Shown here piece by piece: positions 8,647 through 51,237 of a stretch of DNA of 64,000 nucleotides. Origin of the DNA: a virus (lineage: Duplodnaviria > Heunggongvirae > Uroviricota > Caudoviricetes); the IMG/VR virus record IMGVR_UViG_3300027608_000011. One strand, written 5' to 3'. Under the pieces are notes generated by a model. It saw only the letters and a program-made list of their open reading frames with translations, was not told the DNA's origin and ran no database searches. The position numbers and the translations under genes are program-made. Numbering within the stretch: position 1 is the first letter of the stretch; each line of letters starts with the position of its first letter.

Positions 8647-9477
8647 ATGGCAAAGAAAATACAAACACAAACGCAGACTAACATAGATCTTGACAACATC
8701 TTTAAGACTGGTACAGCTCGTCCTGTTGTTAAGCATACGGAAAAGCCCAAGGTTAAGCCTGTACAGGATAAGCCTAAAGTTGTAAACATTAACAAGGCCA
8801 ATGTCTCTAAAACATTAGGTGCTACAAGTAAAATACAGCCTACACAGGCCATGCAGGATATGCTAGGCAAGATGCTAGACATTAAACTTGACGCCGACTT
8901 GCCTGCTTACTTGGATGAGAATTACATTGACTTAGAAGCTACAGTAAATTTATCTTTGGAAGAAACTATACTGTTTAACGATAGTGGCATTGAGCCCAAG
9001 CCCCCAGAGACCTTGCCCACAGTTATAGTTAAGACTACTACATTGGCAACCACCGCAGAACACGCATTACGCAAGGCAGGCTACTTGGTACCGGATTTCC
9101 ACCAAGTAGCGGCACTGCCTGGTAACGTTAAAGACCAAATTAGACAGCTAGGACGTAGTGTGTTTAAGACTATGACAATTACGCCTACTAACAAAATCTT
9201 TGTAGTAGCTAACTTAGGCGGACAGGGTCCTAACACAGACAGAGAAGTGCAAAGTGTGGCAGAATGGGTTAGAAGCAATGGTCAGGACTATGGTAACGGC
9301 TCTATCAACTTTGATAGGTCTATACCAGGGTATAAAGCAGAGACACATTTATATACGGCGGCAGGCATTACGTGGTTGTTAGTTAAAGACTTTGCCGGAC
9401 AATACATTTATGCCTGGCCTGAAAAGGAAAGTTTGTTTAGGATAGAAGTTAACAAGTTATTAAAAATATTTCATTAA
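8647..9477 (+). CDS. hypothetical protein (276 aa)
   Basis: ORF tightly following the previous gene. Confidence 0.55.
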   Translation: MAKKIQTQTQTNIDLDNIFKTGTARPVVKHTEKPKVKPVQDKPKVVNINKANVSKTLGATSKIQPTQAMQDMLGKMLDIKLDADLPAYLDENYIDLEATVNLSLEETILFNDSGIEPKPPETLPTVIVKTTTLATTAEHALRKAGYLVPDFHQVAALPGNVKDQIRQLGRSVFKTMTITPTNKIFVVANLGGQGPNTDREVQSVAEWVRSNGQDYGNGSINFDRSIPGYKAETHLYTAAGITWLLVKDFAGQYIYAWPEKESLFRIEVNKLLKIFH

Positions 9478-9509
9478 AAAACGGCTAGTCAATAAATAGC
9501 AGTTTAAAT

Positions 9510-9583
9510 GCCCCGGTGACGGAATTGGTATACGTGTTGGTCTTAGAAGCCAAATTTTAGGAGTTCGAGTCTCCTCTGGGGCA
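9510..9583 (+). tRNA. type I tRNA with anticodon TAG (Leu anticodon but no long variable arm)
   Basis: acceptor GCCCCGG/CTGGGGC, AC stem TTGGT/GCCAA loop CTTAGAA, 5 nt variable loop, T-arm AGGAGTTCGAGTCTCCT, A73, CCA. Confidence 0.55.
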
Positions 9584-9728
9584 CCATTAATAGTTTACAT
9601 ATAAATGCTTTCTGAGTAGCTACACTGGAATAACACTGAACTTGACTTATTCTGCAGAACGGTCAAGAGGTGCCAGGAAGAGCAGGGCTACCGTGGATTC
9701 AAGCGCCACAGAGAGCACCTATATGTAT

Positions 9729-9799
9729 GCGGGGTTCGTAAAATGGTATTACCCTATCCTTCCAAGTTAGAGTCAGGAGTTCGATTCTCCTACCCCGCT
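9729..9799 (+). tRNA. tRNA-Gly (anticodon TCC)
   Basis: close to E. coli Gly(UCC): D-arm TCGTAAAATGGTATTACC, loop CTTCCAA, U73, CCA. Confidence 0.85.
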
Positions 9800-9832
9800 C
9801 CATAATTTTATAGTTAGTGTAGCATACTGAAT

Positions 9833-10300
9833 ATGTTACAAAGTAAATTAAAGAAGAAAATGTTACATCTAGTACAAAATCTTAGTGATAAATTTGCTCT
9901 TCATTTGAATGAAGATCCAGTTCGACCAAACATACCACATGTGGACCGTGTCGGCAGTAACAAGGATATTTTTGTTTTAAGAGACGAAGCCGGTAAAGCT
10001 AAGGCTATTACTTGTGTGAGTTATCAACAAACTATTCCTACCAATGAAGCAGGCTTATTTGAACAAGCAGACTTGCCAAACATAGCAGTATTTTACACAA
10101 TATGGAGTTACAAGGCAGGCGCAGGCAAGCAATTAATTTTTGATGCAGTAAGACATATACGAGCAACAAAAAGTGATGTTGTTAGATTTGTTACTCTTAG
10201 TCCAAAGACAGATACTGCAAAGAAGTTCCATTTACGCAACGGTGCAACTGTGCATAGAGAAAATACTGACACAGTTAATTACGAATATTTGGGGGTGTAG
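9833..10300 (+). CDS. hypothetical protein (155 aa)
   Basis: ORF; its stop codon lies inside the first nucleotides of tRNA-Ala. Confidence 0.4.
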   Translation: MLQSKLKKKMLHLVQNLSDKFALHLNEDPVRPNIPHVDRVGSNKDIFVLRDEAGKAKAITCVSYQQTIPTNEAGLFEQADLPNIAVFYTIWSYKAGAGKQLIFDAVRHIRATKSDVVRFVTLSPKTDTAKKFHLRNGATVHRENTDTVNYEYLGV

Positions 10301-10363
10301 CTCAGTTGGGAGAGCGGCTGGTTTGCAACCAGTAGGTCGCAGGTTCGATCCCTGTCTCCTCCA
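10291..10363 (+). tRNA. tRNA-Ala (anticodon TGC)
   Basis: G3-U70 identity pair, loop TTTGCAA, D-arm GCTCAGTTGGGAGAGC, A73, CCA. Confidence 0.9.
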
Positions 10364-10366
10364 CCA

Positions 10367-10595
10367 GAAAACCCGGACGCCCTTGTCCGTTATACAAAGG
10401 GGGTGAGGCAATCACCATAGACAGTGCTAGGTACGCTAGGACTTAACCTCACGATCCCATTTACGGATACGGAAATAGCCCAGGGTAAGGTACATCGCCT
10501 GCGCCATAAGCAGAAATGATGTGGACAGAGTAACCGCTCAGTCTGGGGCTCCTGTGGTGGGAGTAGCCGGACACTAATTCACACTAAGTTAAATA
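10367..10595 (+). ncRNA. GC-rich non-coding segment downstream of tRNA-Ala (candidate structured RNA)
   Basis: 230 nt with no ORF or SD and markedly higher GC than the flanks. Confidence 0.25.
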
Positions 10596-10600
10596 CGTGC

Positions 10601-11203
10601 ATGAGATACACAATAATAGAAGATTGCAGTCCTTACTACGTTCGATTTACATTTGAAGGTTTAGATAAAATAGTACAGTTCATAAAAGAACATGATCACT
10701 TAGTACATCTACATAATAAGTTTATAGGATATAGTCATTTAGACTTTCATGAAGATATTGCATTGCAAATAATGGACATGTTGCCAATGAGCAATCTTGT
10801 TCCGTTTAACAAAGAAAGAGTTGCTATTTTCGAAACTCCGCCTGGCGGTGGATGCGGAATACATAAGGACGGAATGTGGTCACTGACTAGCTTTAACATA
10901 ATCATAGAAACACATGACGAGTTATGCGAAACAACGTTTTACAGCGATATCGAAATGAGGCACAGCCAACCAACTGGAATGCCATATGTTAGGCATATAT
11001 TTTCAGATTATAATAAGTTAGCTATGTTTAAACCTATAAAATCTATGGTAGCCAAAGAAGGAGAAATGATATTGTTTAATCCTAACATATGGCATGCTTG
11101 GCAAAATATTAAATCTCCATATAAGCGAAGAGTAGTTACATTACGTCTAGTAGATCCTAGTGCTGTGACTTTTGACGAAATGAAAAATAAATTGTTTACA
11201 TAA
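10601..11203 (+). CDS. 2OG-Fe(II) oxygenase/cupin-like protein
   Basis: 200 aa; HxD (GIHKDG) and downstream His (WHAW) motif arrangement. Confidence 0.5.
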   Translation: MRYTIIEDCSPYYVRFTFEGLDKIVQFIKEHDHLVHLHNKFIGYSHLDFHEDIALQIMDMLPMSNLVPFNKERVAIFETPPGGGCGIHKDGMWSLTSFNIIIETHDELCETTFYSDIEMRHSQPTGMPYVRHIFSDYNKLAMFKPIKSMVAKEGEMILFNPNIWHAWQNIKSPYKRRVVTLRLVDPSAVTFDEMKNKLFT

Positions 11204-11254
11204 TTCACCATTACACACGGTGTACAATAGGATAAGTAGTGTGTAAACAAATAT

Positions 11255-11325
11255 CGCGGGCAGGGCGGCCACCACTCCGGTCTCATAAGCCAGGAGCATC
11301 CCAGGTTCAAATCCTGGGCCCGCAA
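11255..11325 (+). tRNA. tRNA-Met (anticodon CAT), initiator-like
   Basis: CGCGGGC...GCCCGCA acceptor with C1-A72 mismatch as in bacterial tRNA-fMet, loop CTCATAA, T-arm CCAGGTTCAAATCCTGG, ends GCAACCA. Confidence 0.7.
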
Positions 11326-11340
11326 CCATTAAATAGTGTT

Positions 11341-11910
11341 ATGAAGGACAGAGACTTTTATTCGAATATTAATATTCCCTTGCCAAATATAGATTGGCAA
11401 ACTGTGTGGGGCGACAGTTCACCTATTGGTGAAACCACACCACGTTGGAAACCGATTATAGACTTAAACAATATTTGGCCTACAGAAATACATGAAAAGT
11501 TTAAAAGCATAGGACTCAGGCTATCAATGGCAAGAGTGTTTAAATGGCACAGTCGGCCTTTCTTCCCATGGCATATCGATGGCAATGAAAAAGGCACTAC
11601 AAAATGTGCATTGAATTGGGTAGTGCAAGGTATCGGGGTTATTCAATGGAATGATAGTATGATACTGGATGGACATACAAATGGTCTAGCAACTGCCGCC
11701 GCGGCCGGTCGGTTTAATGATCCTTATACTTGTCAAACGTTGCCACATGAAAAACAATATTTGGTTGATACTTCGGTTCCTCACAGAGTTGTGGTAGGTG
11801 AAGAAATGAAAGATCGAATTACAGTGAGTATATTGTTCCGTGATAATTGGCTATGGCCTTATTATAGAACAAGAGATAAACTTGCTAGTGTGGGTCTAAT
11901 AGCTGAATGA
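11341..11910 (+). CDS. HxD-cupin paralog family member (AspH/2OG-oxygenase-like)
   Basis: start moved to the Met downstream of the tRNA; PWHIDG and CALNWVVQG family motifs. Confidence 0.55.
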   Translation: MKDRDFYSNINIPLPNIDWQTVWGDSSPIGETTPRWKPIIDLNNIWPTEIHEKFKSIGLRLSMARVFKWHSRPFFPWHIDGNEKGTTKCALNWVVQGIGVIQWNDSMILDGHTNGLATAAAAGRFNDPYTCQTLPHEKQYLVDTSVPHRVVVGEEMKDRITVSILFRDNWLWPYYRTRDKLASVGLIAE

Positions 11911-12448
11911 AATCTTCAAAACCTATAATAGGTGTCACGCTTAAAAACATTCTATGAGCATCGGTAGTTTGAACTTTAGCATGTGGATGATCTGTTCTTA
12001 GTAACATTGCAGAGTCCATAGTTAAACAGAATCTATCTAATTCTACTGCTCCAGTTGGTTGTTCCGAATACGAAGTTGCTTTATACTGTCCGTTACCAAT
12101 TGACTCTAATCGTTCTACAACACTATCTACAGTATAAAAAATTGTGTCGGCACCAATACCACAATTTTGAATGGGTATATTAAGTGCAACAGGTCGTGGA
12201 TCGCGATGTATCATTTTATACATTTTATCATTGACTATAGCATTTGGTGTAGTATAATGTAATACTGCAATGTTACTAACAGGAAAATTATTTTGTAGTT
12301 TACGAAAATAATTAGAATCAAAATCATCTAAGTTAATCATTTGGCCATGTCCTTGTCGACCACGGCCTTTGAAAAGTTGTATTAACTCTTGCCTATCATC
12401 CTCAGTATACATTAATGCAGGTAGAGATATTTTATAATATAGCATCAC
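11885..12448 (-). CDS. HxD-cupin paralog family member
   Basis: 187 aa; MIHRD...VALNIPIQNCGIGADTIFY. Confidence 0.6.
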   Translation of the reverse strand: MMLYYKISLPALMYTEDDRQELIQLFKGRGRQGHGQMINLDDFDSNYFRKLQNNFPVSNIAVLHYTTPNAIVNDKMYKMIHRDPRPVALNIPIQNCGIGADTIFYTVDSVVERLESIGNGQYKATSYSEQPTGAVELDRFCLTMDSAMLLRTDHPHAKVQTTDAHRMFLSVTPIIGFEDFIQLLDPH

Positions 12449-12481
12449 AATATTTAGTTGAATAATAAATAGTTTTAATAC

Positions 12482-12554
<73 letters not shown>

Positions 12555-12650
12555 CCAAAGTTTTGTGGTAAGGAAAGTAAAAGGAGAATGGGCAAGTCTG
12601 TCGCTACTAAACGTCTGACTAGATACCTCACCTGCCATAATTAATTATAC

Positions 12651-12724
12651 CCGTGTGTAGCTCAGCCTGGTAGAGCTCTGCGTTTGGGACGCAGTGGTCG
12701 CATGTTCGAATCGTGTCACACGGA
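12651..12724 (+). tRNA. tRNA-Pro (anticodon TGG)
   Basis: C1-G72, AC stem CTGCG/CGCAG loop TTTGGGA, T-loop TTCGAAT, A73, CCA. Confidence 0.85.
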
Positions 12725-12732
12725 CCAATTTT

Positions 12733-12805
12733 AGGACTTTAGCTCAGTTGGTAGAGCGTCTGCCTTACACGCAGAATGTCGTCAGTTCGAACCTGGCAAG
12801 TCCTA
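12733..12805 (+). tRNA. tRNA-Val (anticodon TAC)
   Basis: acceptor AGGACTT/AAGTCCT, AC stem TCTGC/GCAGA loop CTTACAC, T-arm GTCAGTTCGAACCTGGC, A73, CCA. Confidence 0.85.
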
Positions 12806-12815
12806 CCATAAATGC

Positions 12816-12844
12816 TTGACAATGTCAACTGTGTAGTATATAAT
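12816..12844 (+). promoter_or_regulatory. sigma70-type promoter TTGACA-17-TATAAT
   Basis: consensus hexamers preceding the stem-closed element. Confidence 0.5.
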
Positions 12845-12849
12845 ATATT

Positions 12850-13110
12850 AAATTGTAATTAGTATGAACGTACCCCTCGGCGGGGACTGCTACAAGTGAG
12901 AAGTAGGATATTACGCATGCCACTGACCCACACGTTGTGAAACGCAAAGTTATGCTCGATGCCTGTATTAAGAATATCGGGTACCCCCGAGGCTCCATTG
13001 ATGCAAGAATACCCTGCCAGATGTATGTCGAGTTCCAACGTTCATGACGTTGACTGTCCAGACGTTTCACTGTCGTAACGTAGTTTTAGTATGTTCATAC
13101 TAATTATAAT
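12850..13110 (+). ncRNA. candidate 260 nt structured RNA closed by a 17 bp terminal stem, between tRNA-Val and tRNA-Ser
   Basis: TAATTAGTATGAACGTA...TAGTATGTTCATACTAATTA inverted repeat; interior GC-rich with CCTCGG/CCGAGG long-range pairing; no ORF; own promoter. Confidence 0.4.
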
Positions 13111-13111
13111 T

Positions 13112-13202
13112 GGAGAGCTGGGTGAGCGGCTGAAACCACCTTCCTGCTAAGAAGACGTCCGGGCATAAACCCGGACCGAGGGTTCGAATCCCTCGCTCTC
13201 CA
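13112..13202 (+). tRNA. tRNA-Ser (anticodon GCT), type II
   Basis: D-arm GGGTGAGCGGCTGAAACC, loop CTGCTAA, variable-arm hairpin CGTCCGGGCATAAACCCGGACC, T-arm GAGGGTTCGAATCCCTC, CCA. Confidence 0.85.
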
Positions 13203-13214
13203 CCAATAAATCTA

Positions 13215-14775: not shown

Positions 14776-15486
14776 ATGATAGAAACATTAAAATCCGGGA
14801 TCAATCCCGACAAATACATTTATAAAACTAAGTTAACATTTGGACTAGAATTTGGTGAACGTCTGCGACAGCAAGCAAATAGGGACGACAGTTATTTTCC
14901 TCCTCGTGCGAACTATGAAAATGGTCTTAAAGATCCTTGGGGTGTGTACGAAAGTATCGGCTTAGAAAAAAGTAAAGAGCTACTACGTAGATATAAACAA
15001 ATTAAAAATACTTACCCGGGCGAGGATCCTATAGAATTTAAGCAATTTTATCTGCCGGATGATGCCGCACAAGAACTGTTAGATTTGACTCCGCAGTTTC
15101 TTAAAGACTTGAGTCCAGGAGAGCCTGTACCGATTTTTCAAATTGGTGAAGGTGGTAGTGTATTACCTGCACATCATGGGCACAAACGCAAGTGTTCTAT
15201 ATTTTTACTTTTACAAAGTAGTAATGAACAAACAAGATGGTATGAGCCCACTGCACCATTTGAAACAATATCTACTACTAGGATTCCAGATTTAGATAAA
15301 ATTGAATGTGTAGTAAATGCCACGATAGAACAAGGTAACTGGTACGTGTTTAATCACTTAACATGGCATAGCGTACACAGATATGGCGGCGCAAAACGCA
15401 TTAATGTAGGACTAGATTTTGATAATGTAAGGGCAGAGGACTTGGTTGCAGTAATCAAAGAACACGAAAAAACTTTGATAGATTAA
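14776..15486 (+). CDS. hypothetical protein, possibly distant cupin paralog
   Basis: 236 aa; PAHHGH and WHSVH histidine clusters. Confidence 0.4.
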   Translation: MIETLKSGINPDKYIYKTKLTFGLEFGERLRQQANRDDSYFPPRANYENGLKDPWGVYESIGLEKSKELLRRYKQIKNTYPGEDPIEFKQFYLPDDAAQELLDLTPQFLKDLSPGEPVPIFQIGEGGSVLPAHHGHKRKCSIFLLLQSSNEQTRWYEPTAPFETISTTRIPDLDKIECVVNATIEQGNWYVFNHLTWHSVHRYGGAKRINVGLDFDNVRAEDLVAVIKEHEKTLID

Positions 15487-16076
15487 GTAGCACTAGTTAA
15501 TAACAAGTGCAACCTGGCAGTATTAGATCCGTTATGAAATGTATGTGTTATATTAATTGGATCCAAATACCATACTCTATCATCTGCTGGCATGTGTAAC
15601 TTATACACATCCTTGTCATCTTTAAACAACCAATAACAATCAGTGTTGGTCACTATAGGCACATGATACCTGTTTGGGGTATGCGGATCAGTATGAAACC
15701 TATAACCATTGTTAGGACCTAACCAAACAAGCTGTGCTCGCCCACAGAATCCATGATGTCTGTCATACAGTTTATGAACTAATTTACCCACATATAAATC
15801 TTCGGCCTCTTTTAAATGCTCGGTGAAATTGGCTTCATCTATGTTCTGTTCTACTAAATGTGCATGGCTGGCACTATATTTGCGCCACGCATCCTCTCCG
15901 ACCAGTCCAGGTAAATGCGTTAAATTAATAGCAAAGCCTAGCCTAGAACATATATCGTCAATATCTAGACAAAGCCTATTTAATAGTGTTATAATACTGT
16001 CATATAGTTGTTTTTGATCTACGGTTATTCCGTCAATTGGATAACAATACGGAGGCAAAATATCAACTTGTTTCAT
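15483..16076 (-). CDS. Asp/Asn beta-hydroxylase-like cupin (HxD...H)
   Basis: 197 aa; RFHTDPH and THTFHNG motifs. Confidence 0.5.
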   Translation of the reverse strand: MKQVDILPPYCYPIDGITVDQKQLYDSIITLLNRLCLDIDDICSRLGFAINLTHLPGLVGEDAWRKYSASHAHLVEQNIDEANFTEHLKEAEDLYVGKLVHKLYDRHHGFCGRAQLVWLGPNNGYRFHTDPHTPNRYHVPIVTNTDCYWLFKDDKDVYKLHMPADDRVWYLDPINITHTFHNGSNTARLHLLLTSAT

Positions 16077-16107
16077 ATACGTATTTACACTATATAAATA
16101 TTATAAA

Positions 16108-16863
16108 ATGCACTATAATCCAACTTTATCCAGACTGCTTCAACTAGCAGGTTACGCAAGTTTATTCTTTTTATTATACTGGACTGTGGCCGAAGATTGG
16201 ACCTGGATCATTTATAGCCTGTTGTATTATAAAATTGTAGTTGGATTGTTTGGAAATCAAATAGCGCAACATAGATATTTTAGTCATAACAGTTTTAAAG
16301 CGACCCCATTGGTTCATAAATTACTAGCTATAGTATCTTGTACTACAGCAATTAGTCCGATAGTGTATGCAAGTGTACATCGTCAACATCACAAATACAG
16401 TGACACAATCAAAGATGTACATAGTCCGAATAATGGATTTATACATAGTGCGTTTACTTGGTCATGGAACATGGATAAAAAAGTGAAACCGGCAATTGAT
16501 TTAATGAGAGACGAGTTTTTGTTAATATTGCACGAAAATATGTACAACATTATTATCTTTGGCAACATAATGTTATGCTTAATTGATTGGCGCTTATCAG
16601 CATTTATATTTTTAGCAGGCATAGGCTGGAATTACTTGCACATGGGCTTGTTTAGAAGTGCATTATTTCACATGAGGCTACCAGGAAGCTACAAAAATTT
16701 TGACGTAGCTGATGATAGTTGGAATAACAAATATTTACAGATACTTGATATAGGTGAAGGATTACATAATAATCATCACAAGTATCCTAGTAAATACAAT
16801 CAAGCAACAGCGCCCGGCGAATATGATTTTGCAGGATGGGTAGTTAAAAAATTGTTTATATGA
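16108..16863 (+). CDS. membrane delta-9 fatty-acid desaturase (DesC/SCD-like), paralog 1 of 4
   Basis: His boxes HRYFSH, HRQHHKYSDTIKDVHSP, GEGLHNNHHKYP. Confidence 0.75.
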   Translation: MHYNPTLSRLLQLAGYASLFFLLYWTVAEDWTWIIYSLLYYKIVVGLFGNQIAQHRYFSHNSFKATPLVHKLLAIVSCTTAISPIVYASVHRQHHKYSDTIKDVHSPNNGFIHSAFTWSWNMDKKVKPAIDLMRDEFLLILHENMYNIIIFGNIMLCLIDWRLSAFIFLAGIGWNYLHMGLFRSALFHMRLPGSYKNFDVADDSWNNKYLQILDIGEGLHNNHHKYPSKYNQATAPGEYDFAGWVVKKLFI

Positions 16864-17657
16864 TAGAAGACAAACAGATAGGGGCACGACCTTTAGAATT
16901 TTTATGGAAACGAGTTGGCCTTTTTAGTGTGCCGATTACAATACTATGGATGTTCTTTAATCCCAGTGACTGGCCATGGCTATTAGCAGGAATTATATTT
17001 GGCAAGTTTTTTGTTGGCATGATAGGTAAAAATATTGCTTTCCATCGTTACATCTGTCATAGAAGTTTTAAAACTAGCAAAGCTAAACATTACTTTTTAC
17101 TGTTTGCAAATTCATTTAGTACCAACAGTCCGTTAACTGCGGCCACAGTACATAGATACCACCATAAACACAGTGATACTAATAAGGACCCACATAGCCC
17201 TAAGATATATGGTTTTTGGAATTCATTGTTTTGGAGAGAACGAGTAGTACAGAATAAAAAAGCAATGCAGTTGCCGGTTGACTTAATGAGAGATCCTTCA
17301 CTTATGTGGTTACATAACAATTGCATTTTAGTGTATGGCGTGTACGCCTTGTTATGTCTGTTAATTAGTTGGAAGTTAATGGTATTTTGTTTGTTCTTTG
17401 CTACAGGATTAACTGCAATAAACAACAGTATTATTTTTATTGCATTAGTACATATGAAGATTTGGGGAAGTTACAGAAACTTTGACACAGCAGACCAGAG
17501 TTATAATTCTAAATTTTTGGAAATACTAAGTCCCGGAGAAGGCTATCATAATAATCATCATATGTATCCGGGCAAGTACAACATGGCAATTATGCCAGGC
17601 GAATTTGATTTAGCAGGATGGATTGTCGATAAGGTATTTGTTAATGAAATTAAATGA
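16860..17657 (+). CDS. delta-9 fatty-acid desaturase paralog 2 of 4
   Basis: HRYICH, HRYHHKHSDTNKDPHSP, GEGYHNNHHMYP; start overlaps previous stop. Confidence 0.75.
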   Translation: MIEDKQIGARPLEFLWKRVGLFSVPITILWMFFNPSDWPWLLAGIIFGKFFVGMIGKNIAFHRYICHRSFKTSKAKHYFLLFANSFSTNSPLTAATVHRYHHKHSDTNKDPHSPKIYGFWNSLFWRERVVQNKKAMQLPVDLMRDPSLMWLHNNCILVYGVYALLCLLISWKLMVFCLFFATGLTAINNSIIFIALVHMKIWGSYRNFDTADQSYNSKFLEILSPGEGYHNNHHMYPGKYNMAIMPGEFDLAGWIVDKVFVNEIK

Positions 17658-18468
17658 TATTAATAAAACTGCATTACTAATCAGTACACTTCGTATATCA
17701 AGTATCATAAGTATACCTTTTTGTTTTCTATGGGTTTGTTTTAACCCCAGTGACTGGCCTTGGCTATTGGGCGGCATTATTTGGGTTCGTCTATATGTGC
17801 AACCATTGGTTCGTAGCATGATGTTACATAGATATTTTAGTCATCGTAGTTTTAAAGTTAGTGACCGGGTGCATAAATTTTTCTGTATATCGTCTATATT
17901 TGCGGCTGTGAGTCCAGTTACTGCGGCCGCAATACATAGATTCCACCATAAATTCAGCGACACACCTAAGGACCCACATAGCCCATTAAATGGTATATGG
18001 AGTAGTTTAAGTTATAATCGAAAATTAGTATTAGGATTTAACTACAGTGGGTATATGGATAAAGCAACAGTACCATTTGATTTACTACGTGACAGGTCGG
18101 CGAGGTTTATACATAACAATCTAGCCGTGTTATGCTTAGGTACAATGTTATTATGTGTGTTAGTGTCGTGGAAATTACTTATATTTGGATATGTATTTGG
18201 TGTAGGCCTTGCTCTTGCTGAAACCGGAATCCTTAACATTGTATATGGCCATAAAAAAGCATGGGGTGGATATAGAAATTTTGATACGACTGATAACAGT
18301 TACAATACAAAATGGATCAATTGGTGGTTCGGAGACGGATTTCATAATAATCATCATGCTAAACCGGGCGCTTGGAATCAAAGTACAAAACCAGATGAAA
18401 TAGATTATGTTGCGTATGCAATAAAATATATATTTGCAGAAAAGGATAGCTTACGTGAAATACATTAA
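17623..18468 (+). CDS. delta-9 fatty-acid desaturase paralog 3 of 4
   Basis: HRYFSH, HRFHHKFSDTPKDPHSP, GDGFHNNHHAKP. Confidence 0.7.
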   Translation: MSIRYLLMKLNDINKTALLISTLRISSIISIPFCFLWVCFNPSDWPWLLGGIIWVRLYVQPLVRSMMLHRYFSHRSFKVSDRVHKFFCISSIFAAVSPVTAAAIHRFHHKFSDTPKDPHSPLNGIWSSLSYNRKLVLGFNYSGYMDKATVPFDLLRDRSARFIHNNLAVLCLGTMLLCVLVSWKLLIFGYVFGVGLALAETGILNIVYGHKKAWGGYRNFDTTDNSYNTKWINWWFGDGFHNNHHAKPGAWNQSTKPDEIDYVAYAIKYIFAEKDSLREIH

Positions 18469-19231
18469 TCTTAGCAACATCGCTAGTATTGCGTTTTTGT
18501 TTACAATAGGATGGATTATTATAAATCCTGCAGATTGGTATTGGCTGGTAATTATGTTACTGTGGGAAAAGATTGTTATAGAGATTCTTAGTAAAGAGAT
18601 TGCTAGCCATAGATACTTTAGTCATAAAAGTTTTAAAACAGGAAAGTTCAGACACTATTTTTTAACAGCTTGTACAATATTTGGCCCAGGCGATCCTATT
18701 ACTATTACTGCTATGCATCGCAAGCATCATAAAAATGCAGATACCAAAGATGATCCTCACAGCCCAATGGACGGGGTGTGGAAGATTTTAAGTTATACAA
18801 TTTTTACAGAACAGTTACATACAAATTTACGTGCCCGTGCAAAAAGTTTTCCATGGCCGGTTGATTTAATACGCGATCCTGTTCTTGTATTCTGTCATAA
18901 ACATGCCAGTAAAGTGTTTACAGTTATATGTTTGTTGTTGGCCATTGTTAGTTGGAAGTTCGTTGTGTTTGTATTATTAACTGGCAGACGTGTGTTTCAG
19001 ATTAATACAATTATCTGCGGACTCATACTCACACATTCAAAGTTACCTGGCGGTTATAGAAATTTCGATACTGCTGATAACAGTTATAATACTCCGTGGC
19101 TTGGAATATTTCATCCCGGGGAAGCATACCACAACAATCACCACCACCAGCAAGGTGCATGGAATTTTGCAATGAAGCCAAATGAATTTGACAGTGTTGG
19201 ATGGATCATAGGAAAGGTATTTGCAAAATGA
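18434..19231 (+). CDS. delta-9 fatty-acid desaturase paralog 4 of 4
   Basis: HRYFSH, HRKHHKNADTKDDPHSP, GEAYHNNHHHQQ. Confidence 0.7.
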   Translation: MQKRIAYVKYINLSNIASIAFLFTIGWIIINPADWYWLVIMLLWEKIVIEILSKEIASHRYFSHKSFKTGKFRHYFLTACTIFGPGDPITITAMHRKHHKNADTKDDPHSPMDGVWKILSYTIFTEQLHTNLRARAKSFPWPVDLIRDPVLVFCHKHASKVFTVICLLLAIVSWKFVVFVLLTGRRVFQINTIICGLILTHSKLPGGYRNFDTADNSYNTPWLGIFHPGEAYHNNHHHQQGAWNFAMKPNEFDSVGWIIGKVFAK

Positions 19232-19776
19232 ATTACTATCCGTTAACTTTACCTATTACTAATCCACTTAATCCTAATTTTGTATTCCCCGATGTAACCA
19301 GCATACCTGATCCGTGGACCATATGGTTACCCGAAGCTAAAGATATATTGTCTGATGAAGTATTTGCATGGTTTAAAGAAATTAAGTCAATGCCACATTT
19401 TGTACATTTATTTTATGGCAAAGCAGGTCGCGAATGTAAAATACACACAGACGGAATTAAAAATCCAGTGCCTGCCGCAATCAATTGGGTACTGAGCGGA
19501 CAGTCCAGTGAAATGATATGGTACGACCCGTTGACTGAAGGTAACATAGAATACGTAACGGGTAGTAAGCGAGAACACATATATTGGTTAGACAACGAAG
19601 TTACAGAAATTGCAAGACATCAAATTACAGTACCAACATTAGTAAGAACAGATATACCACATAAGACAATAAACAATAGTAATGACGACAGATGGTGTCT
19701 TAGTGTTAGGTTTTGGCCGGGTAAGCCATGGAATAAAACTGTTGATATGTTAAAGGACTATATAAAGCCTCTTTAG
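19201..19776 (+). CDS. HxD-cupin paralog family member
   Basis: KIHTDG...AAINWVLSGQSSEMIWYD. Confidence 0.55.
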   Translation: MDHRKGICKMNYYPLTLPITNPLNPNFVFPDVTSIPDPWTIWLPEAKDILSDEVFAWFKEIKSMPHFVHLFYGKAGRECKIHTDGIKNPVPAAINWVLSGQSSEMIWYDPLTEGNIEYVTGSKREHIYWLDNEVTEIARHQITVPTLVRTDIPHKTINNSNDDRWCLSVRFWPGKPWNKTVDMLKDYIKPL

Positions 19777-19838
19777 TTCAATGGATAGAATTAGAGTCTT
19801 CGAAACTCAGGATGGTGGTTCGATTCCATCAAGGGGCG
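19767..19838 (+). tRNA. tRNA-Arg (anticodon TCG), tentative
   Basis: acceptor GCCTCTT/AAGGGGC (one G-U), loop CTTCGAA on a 4 bp stem, T-arm GGTGGTTCGATTCCATC, G73, CCA. Confidence 0.55.
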
Positions 19839-20260
19839 CCATTAAGGTTACGTGCAGTTCTAAGCACTGAACTCATAATTTTAAAATTGTTGCTGGCCAT
19901 TTCCAATAACTCGTTGGCTGGATTAGTACTAGTGCTAGCCATACCAAATGCTATTTCCCCCATATCAGCGAAATACTGTTTTGTAGGCCATTTGCTATTC
20001 TTAATTTGCCAGCCATCGATGAATAAACATTCTTCTCCAATATCTTGTAATGCATTGGCCTTTCGTGTTCCAAACAAAGATTGAGCAGTTAGTATTTTAA
20101 GTGAAATAGGTTGTTCCCAAATATTAGTGCGTTCCATTGTTTTGGCAATCACATGAACCAAAAATGCTTCCACTTCAGTATCCAAAATTATATGACTTTT
20201 ACCCTGGGCTTCCATTACAATTTCCCAGCCTGCTTTAACGTATGGTTGCCAATATTTCAT
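19829..20260 (-). CDS. hypothetical protein (143 aa)
   Basis: ORF; 3' end abuts the tRNA on the opposite strand. Confidence 0.45.
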   Translation of the reverse strand: MKYWQPYVKAGWEIVMEAQGKSHIILDTEVEAFLVHVIAKTMERTNIWEQPISLKILTAQSLFGTRKANALQDIGEECLFIDGWQIKNSKWPTKQYFADMGEIAFGMASTSTNPANELLEMASNNFKIMSSVLRTARNLNGAP

Positions 20261-20275
20261 AAAAATATTTATGTT

Positions 20276-20304
20276 GACACGTAAATGAATATATAGTATA
20301 ATAC
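20276..20304 (+). promoter_or_regulatory. sigma70-type promoter TTGACA-17-TATAAT upstream of tRNA-Arg(TCT)
   Basis: consensus hexamers. Confidence 0.5.
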
Positions 20305-20312
20305 AGTATTAC

Positions 20313-20384
20313 CTGGCGTTCGTTCAATGGACAGGACAACATTCTTCTAAAGTGTGAATAGTGGTTCGATTCCACTACGCCGGG
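20313..20384 (+). tRNA. tRNA-Arg (anticodon TCT)
   Basis: acceptor CTGGCGT/ACGCCGG, AC stem ACATT/AGTGT loop CTTCTAA, T-arm AGTGGTTCGATTCCACT, G73, CCA. Confidence 0.7.
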
Positions 20385-20406
20385 CCAGTTAACATAAAGG
20401 AAATAT

Positions 20407-20607
20407 ATGGCACGTATTACATCTGAAGAAGCAGTAAATGCTATCGGGAACCGTTTTGATTTGGTATTAATTGCGTCAGCGCGAGCAAGGGAACTAATGC
20501 GCGGCCATCGTGCAAAAGTAGAAAGCAATAACAAGCCCATTGTTACAGCCCTTAGAGAAATTGAACAGGGCAAAATTGGTAGAGATTATCTAAATAAAAT
20601 TAAATAA
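20407..20607 (+). CDS. rpoZ: DNA-directed RNA polymerase omega subunit homolog
   Basis: 66 aa [30 protein letters not shown]...[13 protein letters not shown] aligns over its length with E. coli RpoZ ([30 protein letters not shown]...VIALREIEEGLI). Confidence 0.8.
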   Translation: [66 protein letters not shown]

Positions 20608-20833: not shown

Positions 20834-21373
20834 ATGCCATGGATTCAAAACGTTGGAATGGGTGATATTAAACTGGGCCATCACTTTGACCCAGGTGTCA
20901 ATGCTATGCTGATTCAAATTGTGGATCCGCCCGGCAACTTTCCCACTCCGTTGTACACATTCAAACAAGTTCATCAGTTCCAATTCCTTGATGTAGAGGA
21001 AAAGGATAAAGTTGACGATGAAGAAATGCGTTGTAGCCAAGAGCAGGCCGATGAACTTGTTCGACTACTAGAACACGCATTGGATAACAGAATGAATGTA
21101 ATTGTTCATTGCCATGCTGGTATTTGCCGTAGCGGCGCAGTATGTGAAGTTGGTGTTATGTTGGGCTTTAACGACACAGAAATGTTCCGTAGTCCCAATC
21201 TGCTGGTCAAGCATCGCATGATGAAAGCCTTGGGGTGGACATATGACGAACAGGAGTCTCACTCTGTCAATGGGACTCCTGTTGACGAAGACTGGGGCAA
21301 CAAGTATGAAAAAGTGTATACACTGGCCGATGCTCGCCGCAAGTACAGAGAAAATTACGAAGGTGATATCTAA
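20834..21373 (+). CDS. protein-tyrosine/dual-specificity phosphatase
   Basis: CX5R signature VHCHAGICRSGA. Confidence 0.75.
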   Translation: MPWIQNVGMGDIKLGHHFDPGVNAMLIQIVDPPGNFPTPLYTFKQVHQFQFLDVEEKDKVDDEEMRCSQEQADELVRLLEHALDNRMNVIVHCHAGICRSGAVCEVGVMLGFNDTEMFRSPNLLVKHRMMKALGWTYDEQESHSVNGTPVDEDWGNKYEKVYTLADARRKYRENYEGDI

Positions 21374-21801
21374 TGTTAGACTGTTTAATTTTAGGTGATA
21401 GCATTGCAGTAGGTACCCAACAGTTCAGACCTGAATGTGTAGCGTATGCAAAAGGCGGCATTAATAGTTGGCAATGGAATAAACAAAACAAGCAACAAAG
21501 CCTTGCCGCCAAAACAGTTATTATAAGCCTGGGATCAAATGATCATGCAGGTGTGCGAACATTATGGGAATTACAAGAACTAAGACGAAGAGTATTTGCT
21601 GACAAAGTTTATTGGATTTTACCAGCTGGTAATCATCCCAAAAGCGATGTTAGTATAGTGGATGTACAAAAAATGGTTAAATTAGTAGCTGACGATTACA
21701 ATGACGTAGTATTACCAATACTGTCGTTGCAATCGGATAAAATACATCCAAGTCGGAAAGGCTATAAAGCACTAGCAGAGGAAACTAAAAATGGTAACTA
21801 G
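21373..21801 (+). CDS. SGNH/GDSL hydrolase (esterase/lipase)
   Basis: ILGDSIAVG block I and LGSNDH block. Confidence 0.55.
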   Translation: MLDCLILGDSIAVGTQQFRPECVAYAKGGINSWQWNKQNKQQSLAAKTVIISLGSNDHAGVRTLWELQELRRRVFADKVYWILPAGNHPKSDVSIVDVQKMVKLVADDYNDVVLPILSLQSDKIHPSRKGYKALAEETKNGN

Positions 21802-23560: not shown

Positions 23561-24718
23561 GTGGGCAGAATGAATACGCAGGCAATAACACGCAATACCC
23601 TAGCAGGCATTACCACAAGTCTTGCTATGGTGCCAGAGGTTGTGGCCTTTGCACTATTAGCACACGTTAATCCCTTAGTAGGTTTGTATGCCGCAGTTAT
23701 ACTAGGACTAGTCACTGCTTTGTTTGGAGGCAGACCTGGCTTGATAAGTGGAGGTGCTGGTAGCTTGGCTGTGGTCAGTGTGGCACTGGTTGTAACACAT
23801 GGAGTAGAATACTTGTTTGCCTGTATTGTGCTTATGGGTGCGATACAGTTTGCGTTTGGAGCGTTCAAGTTAGGCAAGCTAATCAAGCTGGTATCGCCCA
23901 GTGTAATGACAGGCTTTGTGAATGGATTGGCTTTGGTAATTTTTATGGCACAGTTTCATGAAATTCCTGCCCAAGGATTTGCCTTGTACTCTATGTTGGG
24001 ATTAATCGGCGTAACTATTCTCGGAGTACTAATTGCTCCACGGATTACTCGGCATATACCGGGAAGTTTGTTTGGTATTGTGCTTGTGACTGCTGTGGTA
24101 TATGCGTTTGGCATCACAACAAAAACAGTAGGAGACATAGCTCATATTAGTGGAGCCATGCCCTCATTCCATTTACCTAACGTGCCATTCACATTAGAAA
24201 CATTATGGATCGTGCTACCCTACAGCGTGATACTGGCCGCGGTTGGCCTAATTGAAACACTACTAACTGCCAACTTAGTGGACAAGACCATTGGCGGAAC
24301 AAATCAGCCCAACAGGGAAAGCATGGCTCAGGGTGCAGGTAATGTGTTGACAGGCCTGTTTGGTGGCATGGGCGGTTGCGCTATGATTGGGCAAACTGTT
24401 ATCAACTTGGAAGCAGGTGGACATCACCGTTTGGCAGGCGTAGTGGAAGCATTGGCCATCCTAGCTTATATTGTGTTTGCTAGTTTCATAATTGAATCAA
24501 TACCTATTGCGGCCCTGATTGGTGTCATGTGTGTAGTGTGCTATCACACATTTGATTGGAGCAGTTTATCTTTTAAAGGTAAGCCAAGACAAGACATTGC
24601 TGTGATGCTGACAGTTACCGTGGCCACAGTTGTATTCAATTTAGCCTATGCCGTTTTACTTGGAGTAGTATTGACCAGCATGTTATACTACTGGAAACAT
24701 ATCGCAAGCAAAACATGA
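23561..24718 (+). CDS. SulP-family-like anion permease transmembrane domain (sulfate/bicarbonate-transporter-like, no STAS domain)
   Basis: 385 aa polytopic membrane protein; N-terminal LAGITTSLAMVPEVVAFALLA resembles the SulP signature. Confidence 0.5.
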   Translation: MGRMNTQAITRNTLAGITTSLAMVPEVVAFALLAHVNPLVGLYAAVILGLVTALFGGRPGLISGGAGSLAVVSVALVVTHGVEYLFACIVLMGAIQFAFGAFKLGKLIKLVSPSVMTGFVNGLALVIFMAQFHEIPAQGFALYSMLGLIGVTILGVLIAPRITRHIPGSLFGIVLVTAVVYAFGITTKTVGDIAHISGAMPSFHLPNVPFTLETLWIVLPYSVILAAVGLIETLLTANLVDKTIGGTNQPNRESMAQGAGNVLTGLFGGMGGCAMIGQTVINLEAGGHHRLAGVVEALAILAYIVFASFIIESIPIAALIGVMCVVCYHTFDWSSLSFKGKPRQDIAVMLTVTVATVVFNLAYAVLLGVVLTSMLYYWKHIASKT

Positions 24719-25340: not shown

Positions 25341-25364
25341 AAAGCCCCGAAAGGGGCTTTTTTA
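25341..25364 (+). terminator. rho-independent terminator
   Basis: GCCCCGAAAGGGGC hairpin followed by TTTTTT. Confidence 0.75.
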
Positions 25365-25964
25365 TCTCCACTGTTTTATCAGTCCCTTTGATTCTAAATA
25401 ATCTCTGGCTTGGTCAAATTTATTTGGCTTTATATGCCAGCTGGCCAGCACTCTAGTTTTCCTTCCTCGATTCTTAACATCATGTGGAAGGGTTACATTA
25501 AGTAACGTTGGCTCAGTACAATTAAATGTATATACTGGCTTAGGCATATTTGCCGGCCCGCATCGAATAACATTATACCACATTGCTCTACTCATCATCT
25601 GATTAGTGGTACTGGGTTGATCCCAGTTAGGATCATCTTCCGGTATATCATAATAATTAGTTGACGTATGCTCGTCGCAGTCATATACTGGAATGTTTAG
25701 TACTGCATTACGTGGATACTGTTCTGTTTTATCTATGTGTAATGGAAATGTATAAGCAGGTAAAATTTTAAACCACCCCAAATGATTGTCTAAGAAATCA
25801 TATTTGTCCATTAATGATTTAAAGTAAGGTACATTGGCAGGATTTTCATCACCATAACCTACTGCTATAGACTTAGCATAGTGCGTTTGATAATGGTTTT
25901 GAAAAAATGATAAGTCGTATTCAAAGTCAACTGGTAGTGCAATGTCATAATTATAGTTGGTCAT
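25362..25964 (-). CDS. HxD-cupin paralog family member
   Basis: LHIDK...AVLNIPVYDCDEHTSTNYYD. Confidence 0.55.
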   Translation of the reverse strand: MTNYNYDIALPVDFEYDLSFFQNHYQTHYAKSIAVGYGDENPANVPYFKSLMDKYDFLDNHLGWFKILPAYTFPLHIDKTEQYPRNAVLNIPVYDCDEHTSTNYYDIPEDDPNWDQPSTTNQMMSRAMWYNVIRCGPANMPKPVYTFNCTEPTLLNVTLPHDVKNRGRKTRVLASWHIKPNKFDQARDYLESKGLIKQWR

Positions 25965-26578: not shown

Positions 26579-27127
26579 ATGGACCAATACTTCAGTCAGG
26601 TTAACTCAATTAAAATATCCCCAAGTGATCAAACTATAATTTTTAATAACTGTAAAGACGTAGTTAGACGAGGGGTAGGGTATCCAGTTAAACGAGAATT
26701 GCTAGAACCGTTTCTCAGTGAATTTTATAAACTCTATCCAGAAAAGTTATTCCACAAAGTTTTTGGTATATACCTAACTGATCCCGACGCTACTAAAACT
26801 GATCCATTCTGGACCATCCACCAAGACATGCGTCCGTGTGCGCTAAACATACCAATCCACAATTGTGGTGAAGGTGCAGATACCGTTATATTTGATGATA
26901 CTAAATTACAAAGCAAAGCAACATATAACAACGAAATAAAAAGAATGAATTTTTTATTAACTGGAGAAAAAATAGTATTGACAAAGTATACTCAAGACAT
27001 GTATACTACATATCTATTAAACGCACATCAGCCTCATTGCGCCAGTAACTTGTCTAGGCCTAATAGGATGATTTTGAGTTTAGGACCAAACATGCCATAC
27101 AAAGAAGCATTAGCAACTTTTAAATGA
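26579..27127 (+). CDS. HxD-cupin paralog family member
   Basis: IHQDMRPCALNIPIHNCGEGADTVIFDD. Confidence 0.6.
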   Translation: MDQYFSQVNSIKISPSDQTIIFNNCKDVVRRGVGYPVKRELLEPFLSEFYKLYPEKLFHKVFGIYLTDPDATKTDPFWTIHQDMRPCALNIPIHNCGEGADTVIFDDTKLQSKATYNNEIKRMNFLLTGEKIVLTKYTQDMYTTYLLNAHQPHCASNLSRPNRMILSLGPNMPYKEALATFK

Positions 27128-27176: not shown

Positions 27177-27440
27177 ATGACAGTAACAGCCGAACAAATC
27201 CAAGCAGAATTTATTGATTTAATTAAAACGGTACTACGTAGAAAAGATACTGATTCTTACACCGGCGATACTGATCTGATCAAAGACTTAGACCTAGATA
27301 GCCTAGACATTCTAGAAGTTCTAGTTGAAATTCAAGAGAAGTACGAATTTGATATTCCTGATAAAAAGGATGCAGAGCGTTTGACTACAATTGGTTCAGC
27401 TAGTGCTTTCATTGCTGAACTTATTAATCGCAAAGCCTGA
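27177..27440 (+). CDS. acpP: acyl carrier protein
   Basis: 87 aa acidic protein with DLDLDSLDILEVLVEIQEKYEFDIPD (DSL phosphopantetheine-attachment motif). Confidence 0.8.
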   Translation: MTVTAEQIQAEFIDLIKTVLRRKDTDSYTGDTDLIKDLDLDSLDILEVLVEIQEKYEFDIPDKKDAERLTTIGSASAFIAELINRKA

Positions 27441-28016
27441 TACCAAACTATCATACTCAGGGTTATCCACAAATCGCAACGATGCGACTACACGATGACT
27501 AGGATTGGTTCGGTTATCCACGTTGTGCCAGCTGTCTGTTTTGACCAATCTGACTTCGTTTAACGGAGGCATTGTTTCAACTGGTTCCCAATTAGTTTGA
27601 TCCAAACTGTCAGGAGCCAAATAAAAGTTGTATCCTTTTCTGTGCTCTTTGATTAATCTGGTTAGGCCTTCCGGATCGCTACGATCTTGATACCATACTT
27701 GTACTCCACTATCGCAGTTAAACAAGGGAATATTTAAAGCACATCGTTTAAATGGGAAATCATGCAAGTTACCATCAATGTGTATTCCACCAAAACTTTT
27801 TGCTTTGGTAACAAAGAACTTAACAGTAACAACAGGGCACACTGACTCAATCCAATTGAAGACCTTAATTGACCTTAATCGGTCAGGTAACATATCTGCA
27901 TAGTCGTGCGTTCCTTTTTGGTCCATTAAATCTTTGAATTCGGACAAGAATGTAGTTTGCAGTTTGGATTTTAACTGTGAGAAATCTGCAACAATTGGAG
28001 TAAAATAAGTTGACAT
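27396..28016 (-). CDS. HxD-cupin paralog family member
   Basis: IHIDGNLHDFPFKRCALNIPLFNCDSGVQVWYQD. Confidence 0.6.
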   Translation of the reverse strand: MSTYFTPIVADFSQLKSKLQTTFLSEFKDLMDQKGTHDYADMLPDRLRSIKVFNWIESVCPVVTVKFFVTKAKSFGGIHIDGNLHDFPFKRCALNIPLFNCDSGVQVWYQDRSDPEGLTRLIKEHRKGYNFYLAPDSLDQTNWEPVETMPPLNEVRLVKTDSWHNVDNRTNPSHRVVASLRFVDNPEYDSLVSGFAINKFSNESTS

Positions 28017-42856: not shown

Positions 42857-42857
42857 T

Positions 42858-42965
42858 ATGGATATAATTGGATTTTTAATGTTAGCTGTTTTAGCCGGCG
42901 TGTTAATCTTTGTATTTTGCAAAATACTTGACGTATTATTTAATGATGATGGACCATTTAATTAA
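42858..42965 (+). CDS. small membrane peptide (35 aa)
   Basis: ATG two nt after clpP stop; single TM helix. Confidence 0.3.
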   Translation: MDIIGFLMLAVLAGVLIFVFCKILDVLFNDDGPFN

Positions 42966-42975
42966 GGAGAAAATT

Positions 42976-49837: not shown

Positions 49838-49838
49838 A

Positions 49839-51197: not shown

Positions 51198-51198
51198 G

Positions 51199-51227
51199 TT
51201 GACAAGCCTATAAATAATAGTTATAAT
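51199..51227 (+). promoter_or_regulatory. sigma70-type promoter TTGACA-17-TATAAT
   Basis: abuts the divergent minus-strand start codon. Confidence 0.5.
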
Positions 51228-51237
51228 AGTACTTATC

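Follow-up and report, generated by a model that had tools for sequence, protein, structure and literature searches.

A translationally coupled array of four membrane desaturase paralogs in an uncultivated jumbo tailed phage

The DNA analysed here, a stretch of 64,000 nucleotides that we call the window, belongs to the virus record IMGVR_UViG_3300027608_000011 (Duplodnaviria; Heunggongvirae; Uroviricota; Caudoviricetes), the genome of an uncultivated jumbo tailed phage. On its plus strand lie four consecutive genes for paralogous membrane di-iron fatty acid desaturases, D1 to D4, followed by a gene for a 2-oxoglutarate (2OG)/Fe(II)-oxygenase-like cupin, c5. An original prediction, made by a model from the sequence alone, had read the four open reading frames (ORFs) as divergent delta-9 desaturases and had joined them with an acyl carrier protein (ACP), a holo-ACP synthase (AcpS) and lipases encoded elsewhere in the window into a lipid-remodelling module; it overlooked c5, which is coupled to D4, and an AspH-like cupin gene upstream of D1. 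The genes on which the interpretation turns are as follows.

15483-16076, minus strand: AspH/LpxO-like cupin (c1), divergent from D1 across a gap of 31 bp
16108-16863, plus strand: D1, membrane di-iron desaturase paralog of subfamily O, 251 aa; PF00487, 29.0 bits
16860-17657, plus strand: D2, membrane di-iron desaturase paralog, 265 aa; PF00487, 52.2 bits
17644-18468 (ATG start), plus strand: D3, membrane di-iron desaturase paralog, 274 aa; PF00487, 51.0 bits
18455-19231 (probable GTG start), plus strand: D4, membrane di-iron desaturase paralog, 258 aa; PF00487, 44.7 bits
19228-19776, plus strand: c5, fifth gene of the operon, 2OG/Fe(II)-oxygenase-like cupin, 182 aa in the relatives L175-L177
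27177-27440, plus strand: ACP, putative partner of the array; PF00550, 34.7 bits (gathering score 20.8)
43683-44042, plus strand: AcpS, putative partner of the phage ACP; PF01648, 49.5 bits, and TIGR00516, 63.0 bits (cutoff 59.8)

The operon and its four enzymes

The segment from 16108 to 19776 is a five-gene translationally coupled operon of four desaturases and the c5 cupin. D1 and D2 are joined by an ATGA overlap of stop and start codons, as are D4 and the fifth gene, which starts at 19228. For D3 and D4 the ORF list offers TTG starts at 17623 (281 aa) and 18434 (265 aa), but the later starts are more likely because they agree with the lengths (251, 265, 274, 258 and 182 aa) in independent JGI/ENA gene calls from the relatives L175-L177. 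With these starts, the ATG at 17644 gives D3 a 14-nt overlap with the end of D2, and the GTG at 18455 gives D4 an overlap of the same length with the end of D3. Scans of 15300-20500 returned promoters and terminators at chance level (27 promoters against 23.7 expected, 3 terminators against 2.9), and the operon assignment therefore rests on the overlapping codons and on synteny. The same locus is present on a 348,611-bp metagenomic contig (L001) and on shorter contigs (L006 and L175-L177), and the four genes keep the same order across six or more independent samples (the window, L001, L006, L175, L176 and L177).

Membership in the desaturase family was assessed by profile search against PF00487 (FA_desaturase), for which the gathering score is 29.7 bits. 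D2, D3 and D4 exceed it and D1 falls marginally below, at 29.0; D1 scores 361 bits against a family profile built in this analysis and is 41% identical to D2. The three histidine boxes on which the original prediction was based, HRY(F/I)(S/C)H, HRxHH and HNNHH, are found in all four proteins in the correct order and spacing, with small deviations (HRYICH in D2, KDVHSP in D1, GDGFHNNHH in D3 and GEAYHNNHH in D4), and the pairwise identity of the four, 33-43%, is not a matter of chance. Nine histidines are invariant in the four-way alignment (numbered as in D1: H55, H60, H91, H94, H95, H188, H220, H223 and H224). When D2 is aligned by phmmer with mouse and human SCD1 (4YMK, 4ZYO; E=3.7e-13), all boxes are in register, and the nine histidines coincide with those of the three boxes of SCD1 and with its histidine on transmembrane helix 4 (TM4). 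Neither a wrong box spacing nor a disabling substitution, either of which the original prediction had named as evidence against itself, was seen.

D2, the copy chosen for modelling, gave an AlphaFold2 model from 78 sequences with a predicted local distance difference test score (pLDDT) of 93.6 and a predicted template-modelling score (pTM) of 0.90. In a Foldseek search with this model the SCD1 structures (6wf2, 4zyo and 4ymk) were the sole significant matches in the PDB (template-modelling score 0.70, probability 1.0), and AlkB was distant (E=1.2). A Kyte-Doolittle scan in 19-residue windows found hydrophobic segments in D1-D4, although four clean helices were not resolved in each. SCD1 also has an asparagine, N265, four residues before the TM4 histidine, which we take to position a water ligand; the equivalent column, where the alignment is unreliable, has asparagine in 29 of 201 viral copies and a gap in 116. 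From their sequences we place D1-D4 in the SCD/DesC class of first desaturases, and all four appear to be catalytically competent. Hydroxylase and ketolase subfamilies were considered for D1-D4 and rejected on the box pattern and the SCD1 fold.

The original prediction left open whether the duplications are ancient or recent, and the comparison with other phages indicates that they are ancient. One-to-one orthologs of D1-D4 in L001 and L006 are 55-98% identical to the copies in the window: D1 shares 65% identity with its ortholog in L001 and 98% with that in L006 (and 43% with gene 4 of L004), and D3 shares 84% with gene 3 of L001. The ratio of nonsynonymous to synonymous substitution rates (dN/dS), taken where synonymous sites are unsaturated, is 0.03-0.16 for every copy (for example 0.16 for D1 and 0.15 for D4). 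D1-D4 are thus anciently diverged and individually conserved under purifying selection, with no decay. Identity also changes along the operon: the four copies in L006 are 98, 83, 82 and 95% identical to D1-D4 of the window, and the third copies of L006 and L001 share 95% identity, a mosaic that points to recombination inside the array among related phages.

Arrays and their neighbours in other viruses

A scan of IMG/VR yielded 449 viral stretches with relatives of these desaturases, of which 79 loci were taken into the analysis. The viral comparison set comprises 86 sources, which form 61 groups after near-duplicates are collapsed. Two or more desaturase copies lie within approximately 20 kb in 48 of the 86 sources, with nine or ten in some (L007, L008), and 36 of the 61 dereplicated groups are multi-copy, with 2-9 copies within 20 kb. 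Arrays of 2-10 copies are frequent in IMG/VR contigs, and the four-copy array is less unusual than had been supposed. Among 80 bacterial genome loci examined as a control, 78 are single-copy and two have two copies. At least some of the contigs with arrays are clearly phage, such as L026, with a T4-type head scaffold gene, and L029, with a tail fibre gene; large contigs carrying P0042 and P0056 were considered as possible megaphages and rejected, being cellular and single-copy.

The arrays have a history of their own. The nearest relative of a viral copy is never a cellular sequence, and in a neighbour-joining tree 74 of the 82 cellular sequences make up a clade of their own. Of the 136 copies in multi-copy loci, 127 are closest to a copy from some other locus. 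Arrays of different lineages share ordered strings of subfamilies (A-E-E-H-Q-R-S and V-A-G-G-U); that of the window is O-B-B-B, and subfamily O is present also in L004. These observations describe a virus-specific tandem amplification into conserved, ordered subfamilies. All nine ligand histidines are kept in 189 of the 201 full-length viral copies.

The remaining copies are of two kinds. Seven (in L012, L026, L046 and L062) have a QxxHH third box, a variant typical of front-end and acetylenase-type enzymes, and five (in L007, L008, L010, L014 and L072) lack the TM4 ligand histidine. Both variants suggest chemical diversification inside the arrays.

Flanking genes of the viral arrays were clustered and the cluster representatives scanned with profiles. 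Recurrent neighbours are AspH-like cupins, a small ACP (PF00550, with a DSL motif) and a FabF-like ketoacyl synthase (KAS), together with B12-type and SPASM radical SAM proteins, SDR proteins, LbH proteins (weakly LpxD/NeuD-like), and aminotransferase-like, TauD, Rieske and ATP-grasp proteins. The KAS gene stands directly before the array in L004, L029, L052 and L072 and follows the leading desaturase copy in L007, L008 and L010; in the last three the ACP gene lies inside the array. Neighbours were counted within 10 kb in dereplicated groups (25 single-copy, 36 multi-copy) and compared by Fisher test. ACP is enriched beside multi-copy arrays, being found in 10 of the 36 multi-copy groups and in none of the 25 single-copy groups (p=0.004). 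Sugar-related genes flank some arrays: a UDP-glucose dehydrogenase, an epimerase and a glycosyltransferase in L007 (15760-19196), and a weakly LpxD/NeuD-like LbH transferase in L004 (5998-6609). The presence of such sugar-nucleotide and acyltransferase genes hints at a glycolipid or lipopolysaccharide (LPS)-related end product.

In the window itself the ACP and AcpS of the original prediction are both present. The ACP has the DSL phosphopantetheine site (LDLDSLD) and scores 50.9 against TIGR00517, below the cutoff of 70.45, and is therefore a divergent ACP. Its position is kept in the close relative L175, and by BLAST it clusters with the ACPs inside or beside the arrays of L007, L008, L010 and others. 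The first base of the AcpS gene is the last base of the stop codon of a Bax1-I gene. As for the proposed module, its association of ACP with desaturases gains comparative support from the enrichment beside arrays elsewhere, but the genes are not contiguous here, with ACP 8 kb and AcpS 24.5 kb from the array.

Cupins recur in the window, where at least eight divergent AspH-like paralogs, most without a direct Pfam match, lie within 64 kb. In addition to c1 and c5 they include the following.

11885-12448, minus strand: AspH/2OG-oxygenase-like cupin paralog
25362-25964, minus strand: AspH-like cupin paralog (c78), upstream of ACP
26579-27127, plus strand: AspH-like cupin paralog (c78), immediately upstream of ACP
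27396-28016, minus strand: c5 cupin paralog with the HxD...H...R invariants, convergent with ACP and overlapping its 3' end
58245-58895 and 58837-59409, minus strand: AspH/2OG-oxygenase-like cupin paralogs

The c5 family had no match by sequence search in PDB or Pfam and was resolved only through profile-profile comparison and structure prediction; the model predicts a double-stranded beta-helix (DSBH) fold with an HxD...H...R signature, as expected of a 2OG oxygenase with an HxD...H iron triad and a basic residue for 2OG binding. By BLAST, the c1 cluster comprises 52 genes in 31 of the 86 sources. Against PF05118 (Asp_Arg_Hydrox; gathering score 22.6) the representatives of the c1 and c9 clusters score 26.5 and 23.4 bits, while the window's own c1 and c5 proteins have no direct Pfam match and c1 has none in NCBIfam either. 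Their AspH-like assignment therefore comes from BLAST clustering and from hhalign, where c78 pairs with c5 at 97% and with c1 at 95%, and the links among the cupin families span 93-99%.

Possible functions of the array

The reading that we favour, while regarding it as evenly poised between right and wrong, is that four non-redundant desaturases carry out a multi-step tailoring of one acyl chain, probably on the phage ACP. D1-D4 would each act at a different position or step, or would work together in a complex, on one shared fatty acyl chain, with several O2-dependent desaturations as the result, and the cupins would probably add hydroxylations. The substrate would most probably be an acyl chain attached to the ACP that the phage itself encodes, with the phage AcpS bringing this ACP into its holo form, and a carrier of the host, for instance ferredoxin or flavodoxin, would supply the electrons. 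Infected cells would then contain an unusual acyl lipid, multiply unsaturated or oxygenated, something beyond extra monounsaturated membrane lipid. We favour this proposal because an adjustment of membrane fluidity predicts neither ordered, old paralogs nor an association with ACP and a condensing enzyme, and because the polyyne desaturase triad, in which three enzymes act on ACP-bound acyl chains and all are required, is a precedent for non-redundant desaturase sets (PMC9828172).

Several points weigh against this proposal. The ACP gene lies 8 kb downstream of the array with about 17 genes between, and AcpS is 24.5 kb away; among the genes that separate the array, ACP and AcpS are those for a sulfate permease, a subtilase, an SPFH protein, ClpP, Bax1-I and other unrelated accessory proteins. 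Among the ORFs scanned, the 64-kb window, part of a genome of roughly 350 kb, holds no KAS, no fatty acyl-AMP ligase (FAAL) or acyl-ACP synthetase, and no adjacent thioesterase, and a motif search of it for ferredoxin, rubredoxin, flavodoxin and cytochrome b5 genes gave spurious matches only. The enrichment of KAS and of AspH-like genes beside arrays lost significance on dereplication (KAS in 2 of 25 single-copy and 10 of 36 multi-copy groups, p=0.10; AspH-like c1/c9 in 8 of 25 and 18 of 36, p=0.20), and all such co-occurrence counts are biased by the tendency of single-copy loci to lie on shorter contigs. Cupins beside both array and ACP are weak evidence of a link because the window has at least eight such paralogs, which weakens the idea that they specifically connect ACP with the array. 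D2, D3 and D4 belong to one subfamily at the clustering depth used, a grouping also compatible with delta-9 enzymes that have subfunctionalised to serve different classes of lipid. The literature, too, takes viral desaturases for acyl-lipid delta-9 enzymes (PMC5776448, PMC7300359). Finally, we infer the substrate, carrier and regiospecificity of the enzymes, as we do their non-redundancy, their ACP tethering, the electron donor, and the product and its role.

The strongest alternative, a serious one that we nevertheless think unlikely, is that the operon encodes four acyl-lipid or acyl-CoA delta-9 desaturases that raise the monounsaturation of the host membrane for fluidity or function during infection, the copies differing merely in lipid class, chain length, sn-position or timing, or adding dosage. 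Viral fatty acid desaturases (vFADs) have so far been interpreted in this way (PMC5776448, PMC7300359, PMC7678222). Those described by Roitman et al. (2018; PMC5776448) and Zhong et al. (2020; PMC7300359) are, like the array, phage PF00487 proteins of the same histidine-box class; the reported cyanophage, pelagiphage and sea-ice genes are single, however, whereas here there are four old paralogs in one coupled operon. In the cultured Pelagibacter phage Mosig (MT647606), an AspH-like gene, a desaturase gene and an aminotransferase gene follow one another, so that an AspH-like gene adjoins a desaturase as in the window, and the Mosig desaturase is 33% identical to D4.

The box class (HX4H/HX2HH/HX2HH) and the SCD1 fold also agree with delta-9 enzymes, as does the naming of the nearest annotated homologs as delta-9, DesC or acyl-CoA desaturases. 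The model of D2 shares with SCD1 (4YMK, 4ZYO, 6WF2) its fold, at a template-modelling score of 0.70, and the phage enzymes share the nine histidines and the box spacing; they are minimal, at 251-274 aa compared with approximately 300-360 aa in SCD1 and DesC. Regiospecificity is another matter. D1-D4 were compared with six annotated references, all 24-34% identical to them: an Acinetobacter acyl-CoA desaturase, Aulosira DesC1 (28-32%), a Ralstonia enzyme, two Burkholderia gladioli desaturases and the Mosig enzyme. All six have the same box pattern, so the boxes, being common to lipid-, CoA- and ACP-type enzymes, do not settle either regiospecificity or acyl carrier. The delta-9 assignment that had been drawn from them is thus not established, since JamB-like ACP-dependent enzymes, the ACP-coupled Ralstonia enzyme, DesC1 and acyl-CoA enzymes all share them.

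The Ralstonia enzyme (29-33% identical to D1-D4) lies in a cluster (CP023017.1, 2011317-2015078; L168) of genes for a CFA-synthase-like protein, a thioesterase, acpP, the desaturase, a patatin and a lysophospholipase, and is translationally coupled to acpP by a 4-nt overlap. In composition this cluster resembles the module of the original prediction, but it is cellular and contiguous and has a single desaturase, whereas its phage counterparts are scattered. The enzyme is annotated as a delta-9 acyl-phospholipid desaturase; its context suggests one linked to ACP.

That no acyl-loading enzyme or thioesterase was found at the locus, and that D2-D4 form one subfamily, likewise favours delta-9 enzymes, and the cupin neighbours would fit a remodelling of lipids in situ by analogy with LpxO. 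LpxO-type hydroxylases of the AspH family act on intact membrane lipids. Set against this, bacteria have a single copy at 78 of the 80 loci, while phages, whose genomes are economical, keep 4-10 old and divergent copies under purifying selection, and neither dosage nor redundancy predicts ordered subfamilies or the enrichment of ACP.

A more specialised possibility, which we consider improbable, is a thiotemplated polyyne or terminal-alkyne pathway of the cay/pgn or JamABC kind, in which a complex of desaturases would form triple bonds in a fatty acid carried on ACP, to make a reactive toxin or antimicrobial. Such clusters combine non-redundant desaturases bearing HRYxxH/HRxHH/HNNHH boxes with a dedicated ACP, a combination that is the hallmark of polyyne synthesis and in which every desaturase is required (PMC9828172). 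The four clustered desaturases of the window match this pattern, and a dedicated ACP lies inside the viral arrays of L007, L008 and L010; in the window, by contrast, no ACP lies in the cluster, and no FAAL, thioesterase or rubredoxin/ferritin was found. A related cellular cluster is that of B. gladioli (bgla_4p; L166), with genes for a desaturase, an ACP, a methyltransferase, a second desaturase, an amidohydrolase, a fatty acyl-AMP ligase and thioesterases; its desaturases are 24-29% identical to D1-D4, which are no further from its JamB-like enzyme (27-29%) than from the rest of the reference set. The QxxHH third boxes of some viral arrays would also suit acetylenases. All four copies in the window have an HxxHH third box, however, the nearest relatives of viral copies are never cellular, and neither FAAL or thioesterase families nor rubredoxin/ferritin were found among the recurrent neighbours in the 86 viral sources. 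Viral arrays pair instead with a FabF-like KAS, where polyyne clusters have FAAL, thioesterase and rubredoxin/ferritin.

Still less probable are a substrate other than a fatty acyl chain (carotenoids, hopanoids or sterols, alkanes, or sphingoid and amino-lipid chains) and hydroxylase or ketolase chemistry. PF00487 and its relatives do include hydroxylases and ketolases, D1 lies just below the Pfam threshold, the column equivalent to SCD1 Asn265 is not conserved, and many oxygenases surround the arrays. The boxes and their spacing are nevertheless those of the delta-9 first-desaturase class, from which the motif patterns of AlkB, CrtW and sphingolipid hydroxylases differ; SCD1 is the structure that the model matches (AlkB has E=1.2), the named homologs are all acyl desaturases, and the association with ACP and KAS points to fatty acyl chains. 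That the array is partly non-functional, consisting of decaying duplicates, non-catalytic subunits or an assembly artefact, is scarcely credible: D1 is below the gathering threshold and 12 of the 201 copies in viral arrays lack one ligand histidine, but the nine ligands are intact in D1-D4, dN/dS is low (0.03-0.16) and the gene order recurs in at least six independent samples. Pseudogenised copies were rejected on the same intact ligands and low dN/dS.

The phage genome and the wider meaning of the arrays

Beyond the array, the window has a gene for a tail fibre or tail protein of more than 1498 aa, a holin gene and 22 tRNA genes, and its TROVE-like RNA-binding protein is 43-48% identical to proteins of T4-like phages. 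Ro60-type proteins usually have small Y-like RNAs as partners. Among GenBank phages, megablast found no DNA-level relative of 15000-20500, and tblastn matched single-copy genes only, in Pelagibacter phage Mosig and Acinetobacter phage MD-2021a; a scan of metagenome contigs for close relatives returned one 2-kb contig only. The nearest cellular homologs of the desaturases are at most 35% identical and are scattered over many phyla, so that no host can be inferred from these genes. The other features are listed here.

505-13205 and 19767-20387: tRNA genes, 22 in all, 20 of them within the first 13 kb of the window
4065-5480: TROVE/Ro60-like RNA-binding protein (DUF2828/DUF7788), interleaved with tRNA genes
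5816-7006, minus strand: SPASM radical SAM protein, interleaved with tRNA genes
21373-21801: SGNH candidate, 30.0 bits, under the Pfam threshold of 32.9
23561-24718: sulfate-permease-family protein (PF00916, 155 bits)
28071-30062: subtilase, host-like accessory gene
31635-32435: SPFH/Band-7 protein, host-like accessory gene
41047/41188-41949: dienelactone-hydrolase-family (DLH) protein, 63.6 bits, 22 kb from the array
42266-44042, plus strand: ClpP (258 bits), then a Bax1-I/YccA-like membrane protein (181 bits), then AcpS
47879-48997: OYE/NemA-type flavin oxidoreductase, host-like accessory gene
49007-49837: D-Ala-D-Ala carboxypeptidase, host-like accessory gene
49812-50630: short UDP-glucose-dehydrogenase-like ORF
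50613-51341, minus strand: weak, generic match to the alpha/beta-hydrolase fold
51238-52002: DUF3050 protein (haem-oxygenase-like iron enzyme family), host-like accessory gene
54101-54730: Vut_1/YhhQ-type transporter, host-like accessory gene

The three lipases that had been proposed as further parts of a lipid module are weak or generic calls: an SGNH candidate below threshold, a DLH-family protein and a weak alpha/beta-hydrolase fold. For the last, 50613-51197 had been given as the ORF with no strand named; the plus strand there is full of stop codons, and the actual ORF lies on the minus strand, at 50613-51341. The sulfate-permease-family gene at 23561-24718 is missing from the otherwise syntenic close relative L175, as if a host-like transporter had recently been gained or lost. 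The row formed by ClpP, the Bax1-I/YccA-like protein and AcpS is an odd functional grouping.

The enzyme family, the concept of viral fatty acid desaturases and cooperative sets of desaturases in bacteria are already known. A search of the full-text literature, with subscription-only papers outside its coverage, found no published viral desaturase array, only reports of single vFAD genes, and the word desaturase is absent from the top-ranked papers on jumbo and huge phages, including comparative genomics and a 2026 review. No earlier description appears to exist of tandem arrays in viruses, of their KAS/ACP setting or of the oxygenase coupled to the operon.

A broader view, which we put forward tentatively and with low confidence, is that many large phages of aquatic habitats carry a thiotemplated pathway for lipid tailoring that is self-contained and that makes a polyunsaturated, acetylenic or hydroxylated chain foreign to host metabolism. 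Such a pathway would comprise a dedicated ACP (with, in the present phage, its own AcpS), a FabF-like KAS, three to ten desaturases, and 2OG and radical-SAM oxygenases. The chain might be passed to an amino sugar or an envelope glycolipid, a step suggested by the LpxD/NeuD-like acyltransferase and sugar-nucleotide genes that flank some arrays. The whole would be a phage specialised-lipid cluster that could serve in envelope remodelling, in blocking superinfection or in poisoning competitors, and the four-gene desaturase operon of the window would be one reduced form of it.

Until now the desaturase of a virus has been regarded as a lone auxiliary gene for adjusting membrane fluidity, but phages retain ordered sets of old desaturases, often with their own ACP and condensing enzyme, and bacteria with related enzymes almost never do. 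The small size (about 250 aa) and diversity of these enzymes could supply new regiospecificities for lipid engineering. If the copies are indeed non-redundant, phages would make lipids beyond the ability of their hosts; this would amount to a new class of lipid chemistry under viral direction and would bear on the way in which infected cells (virocells) alter aquatic lipid pools.

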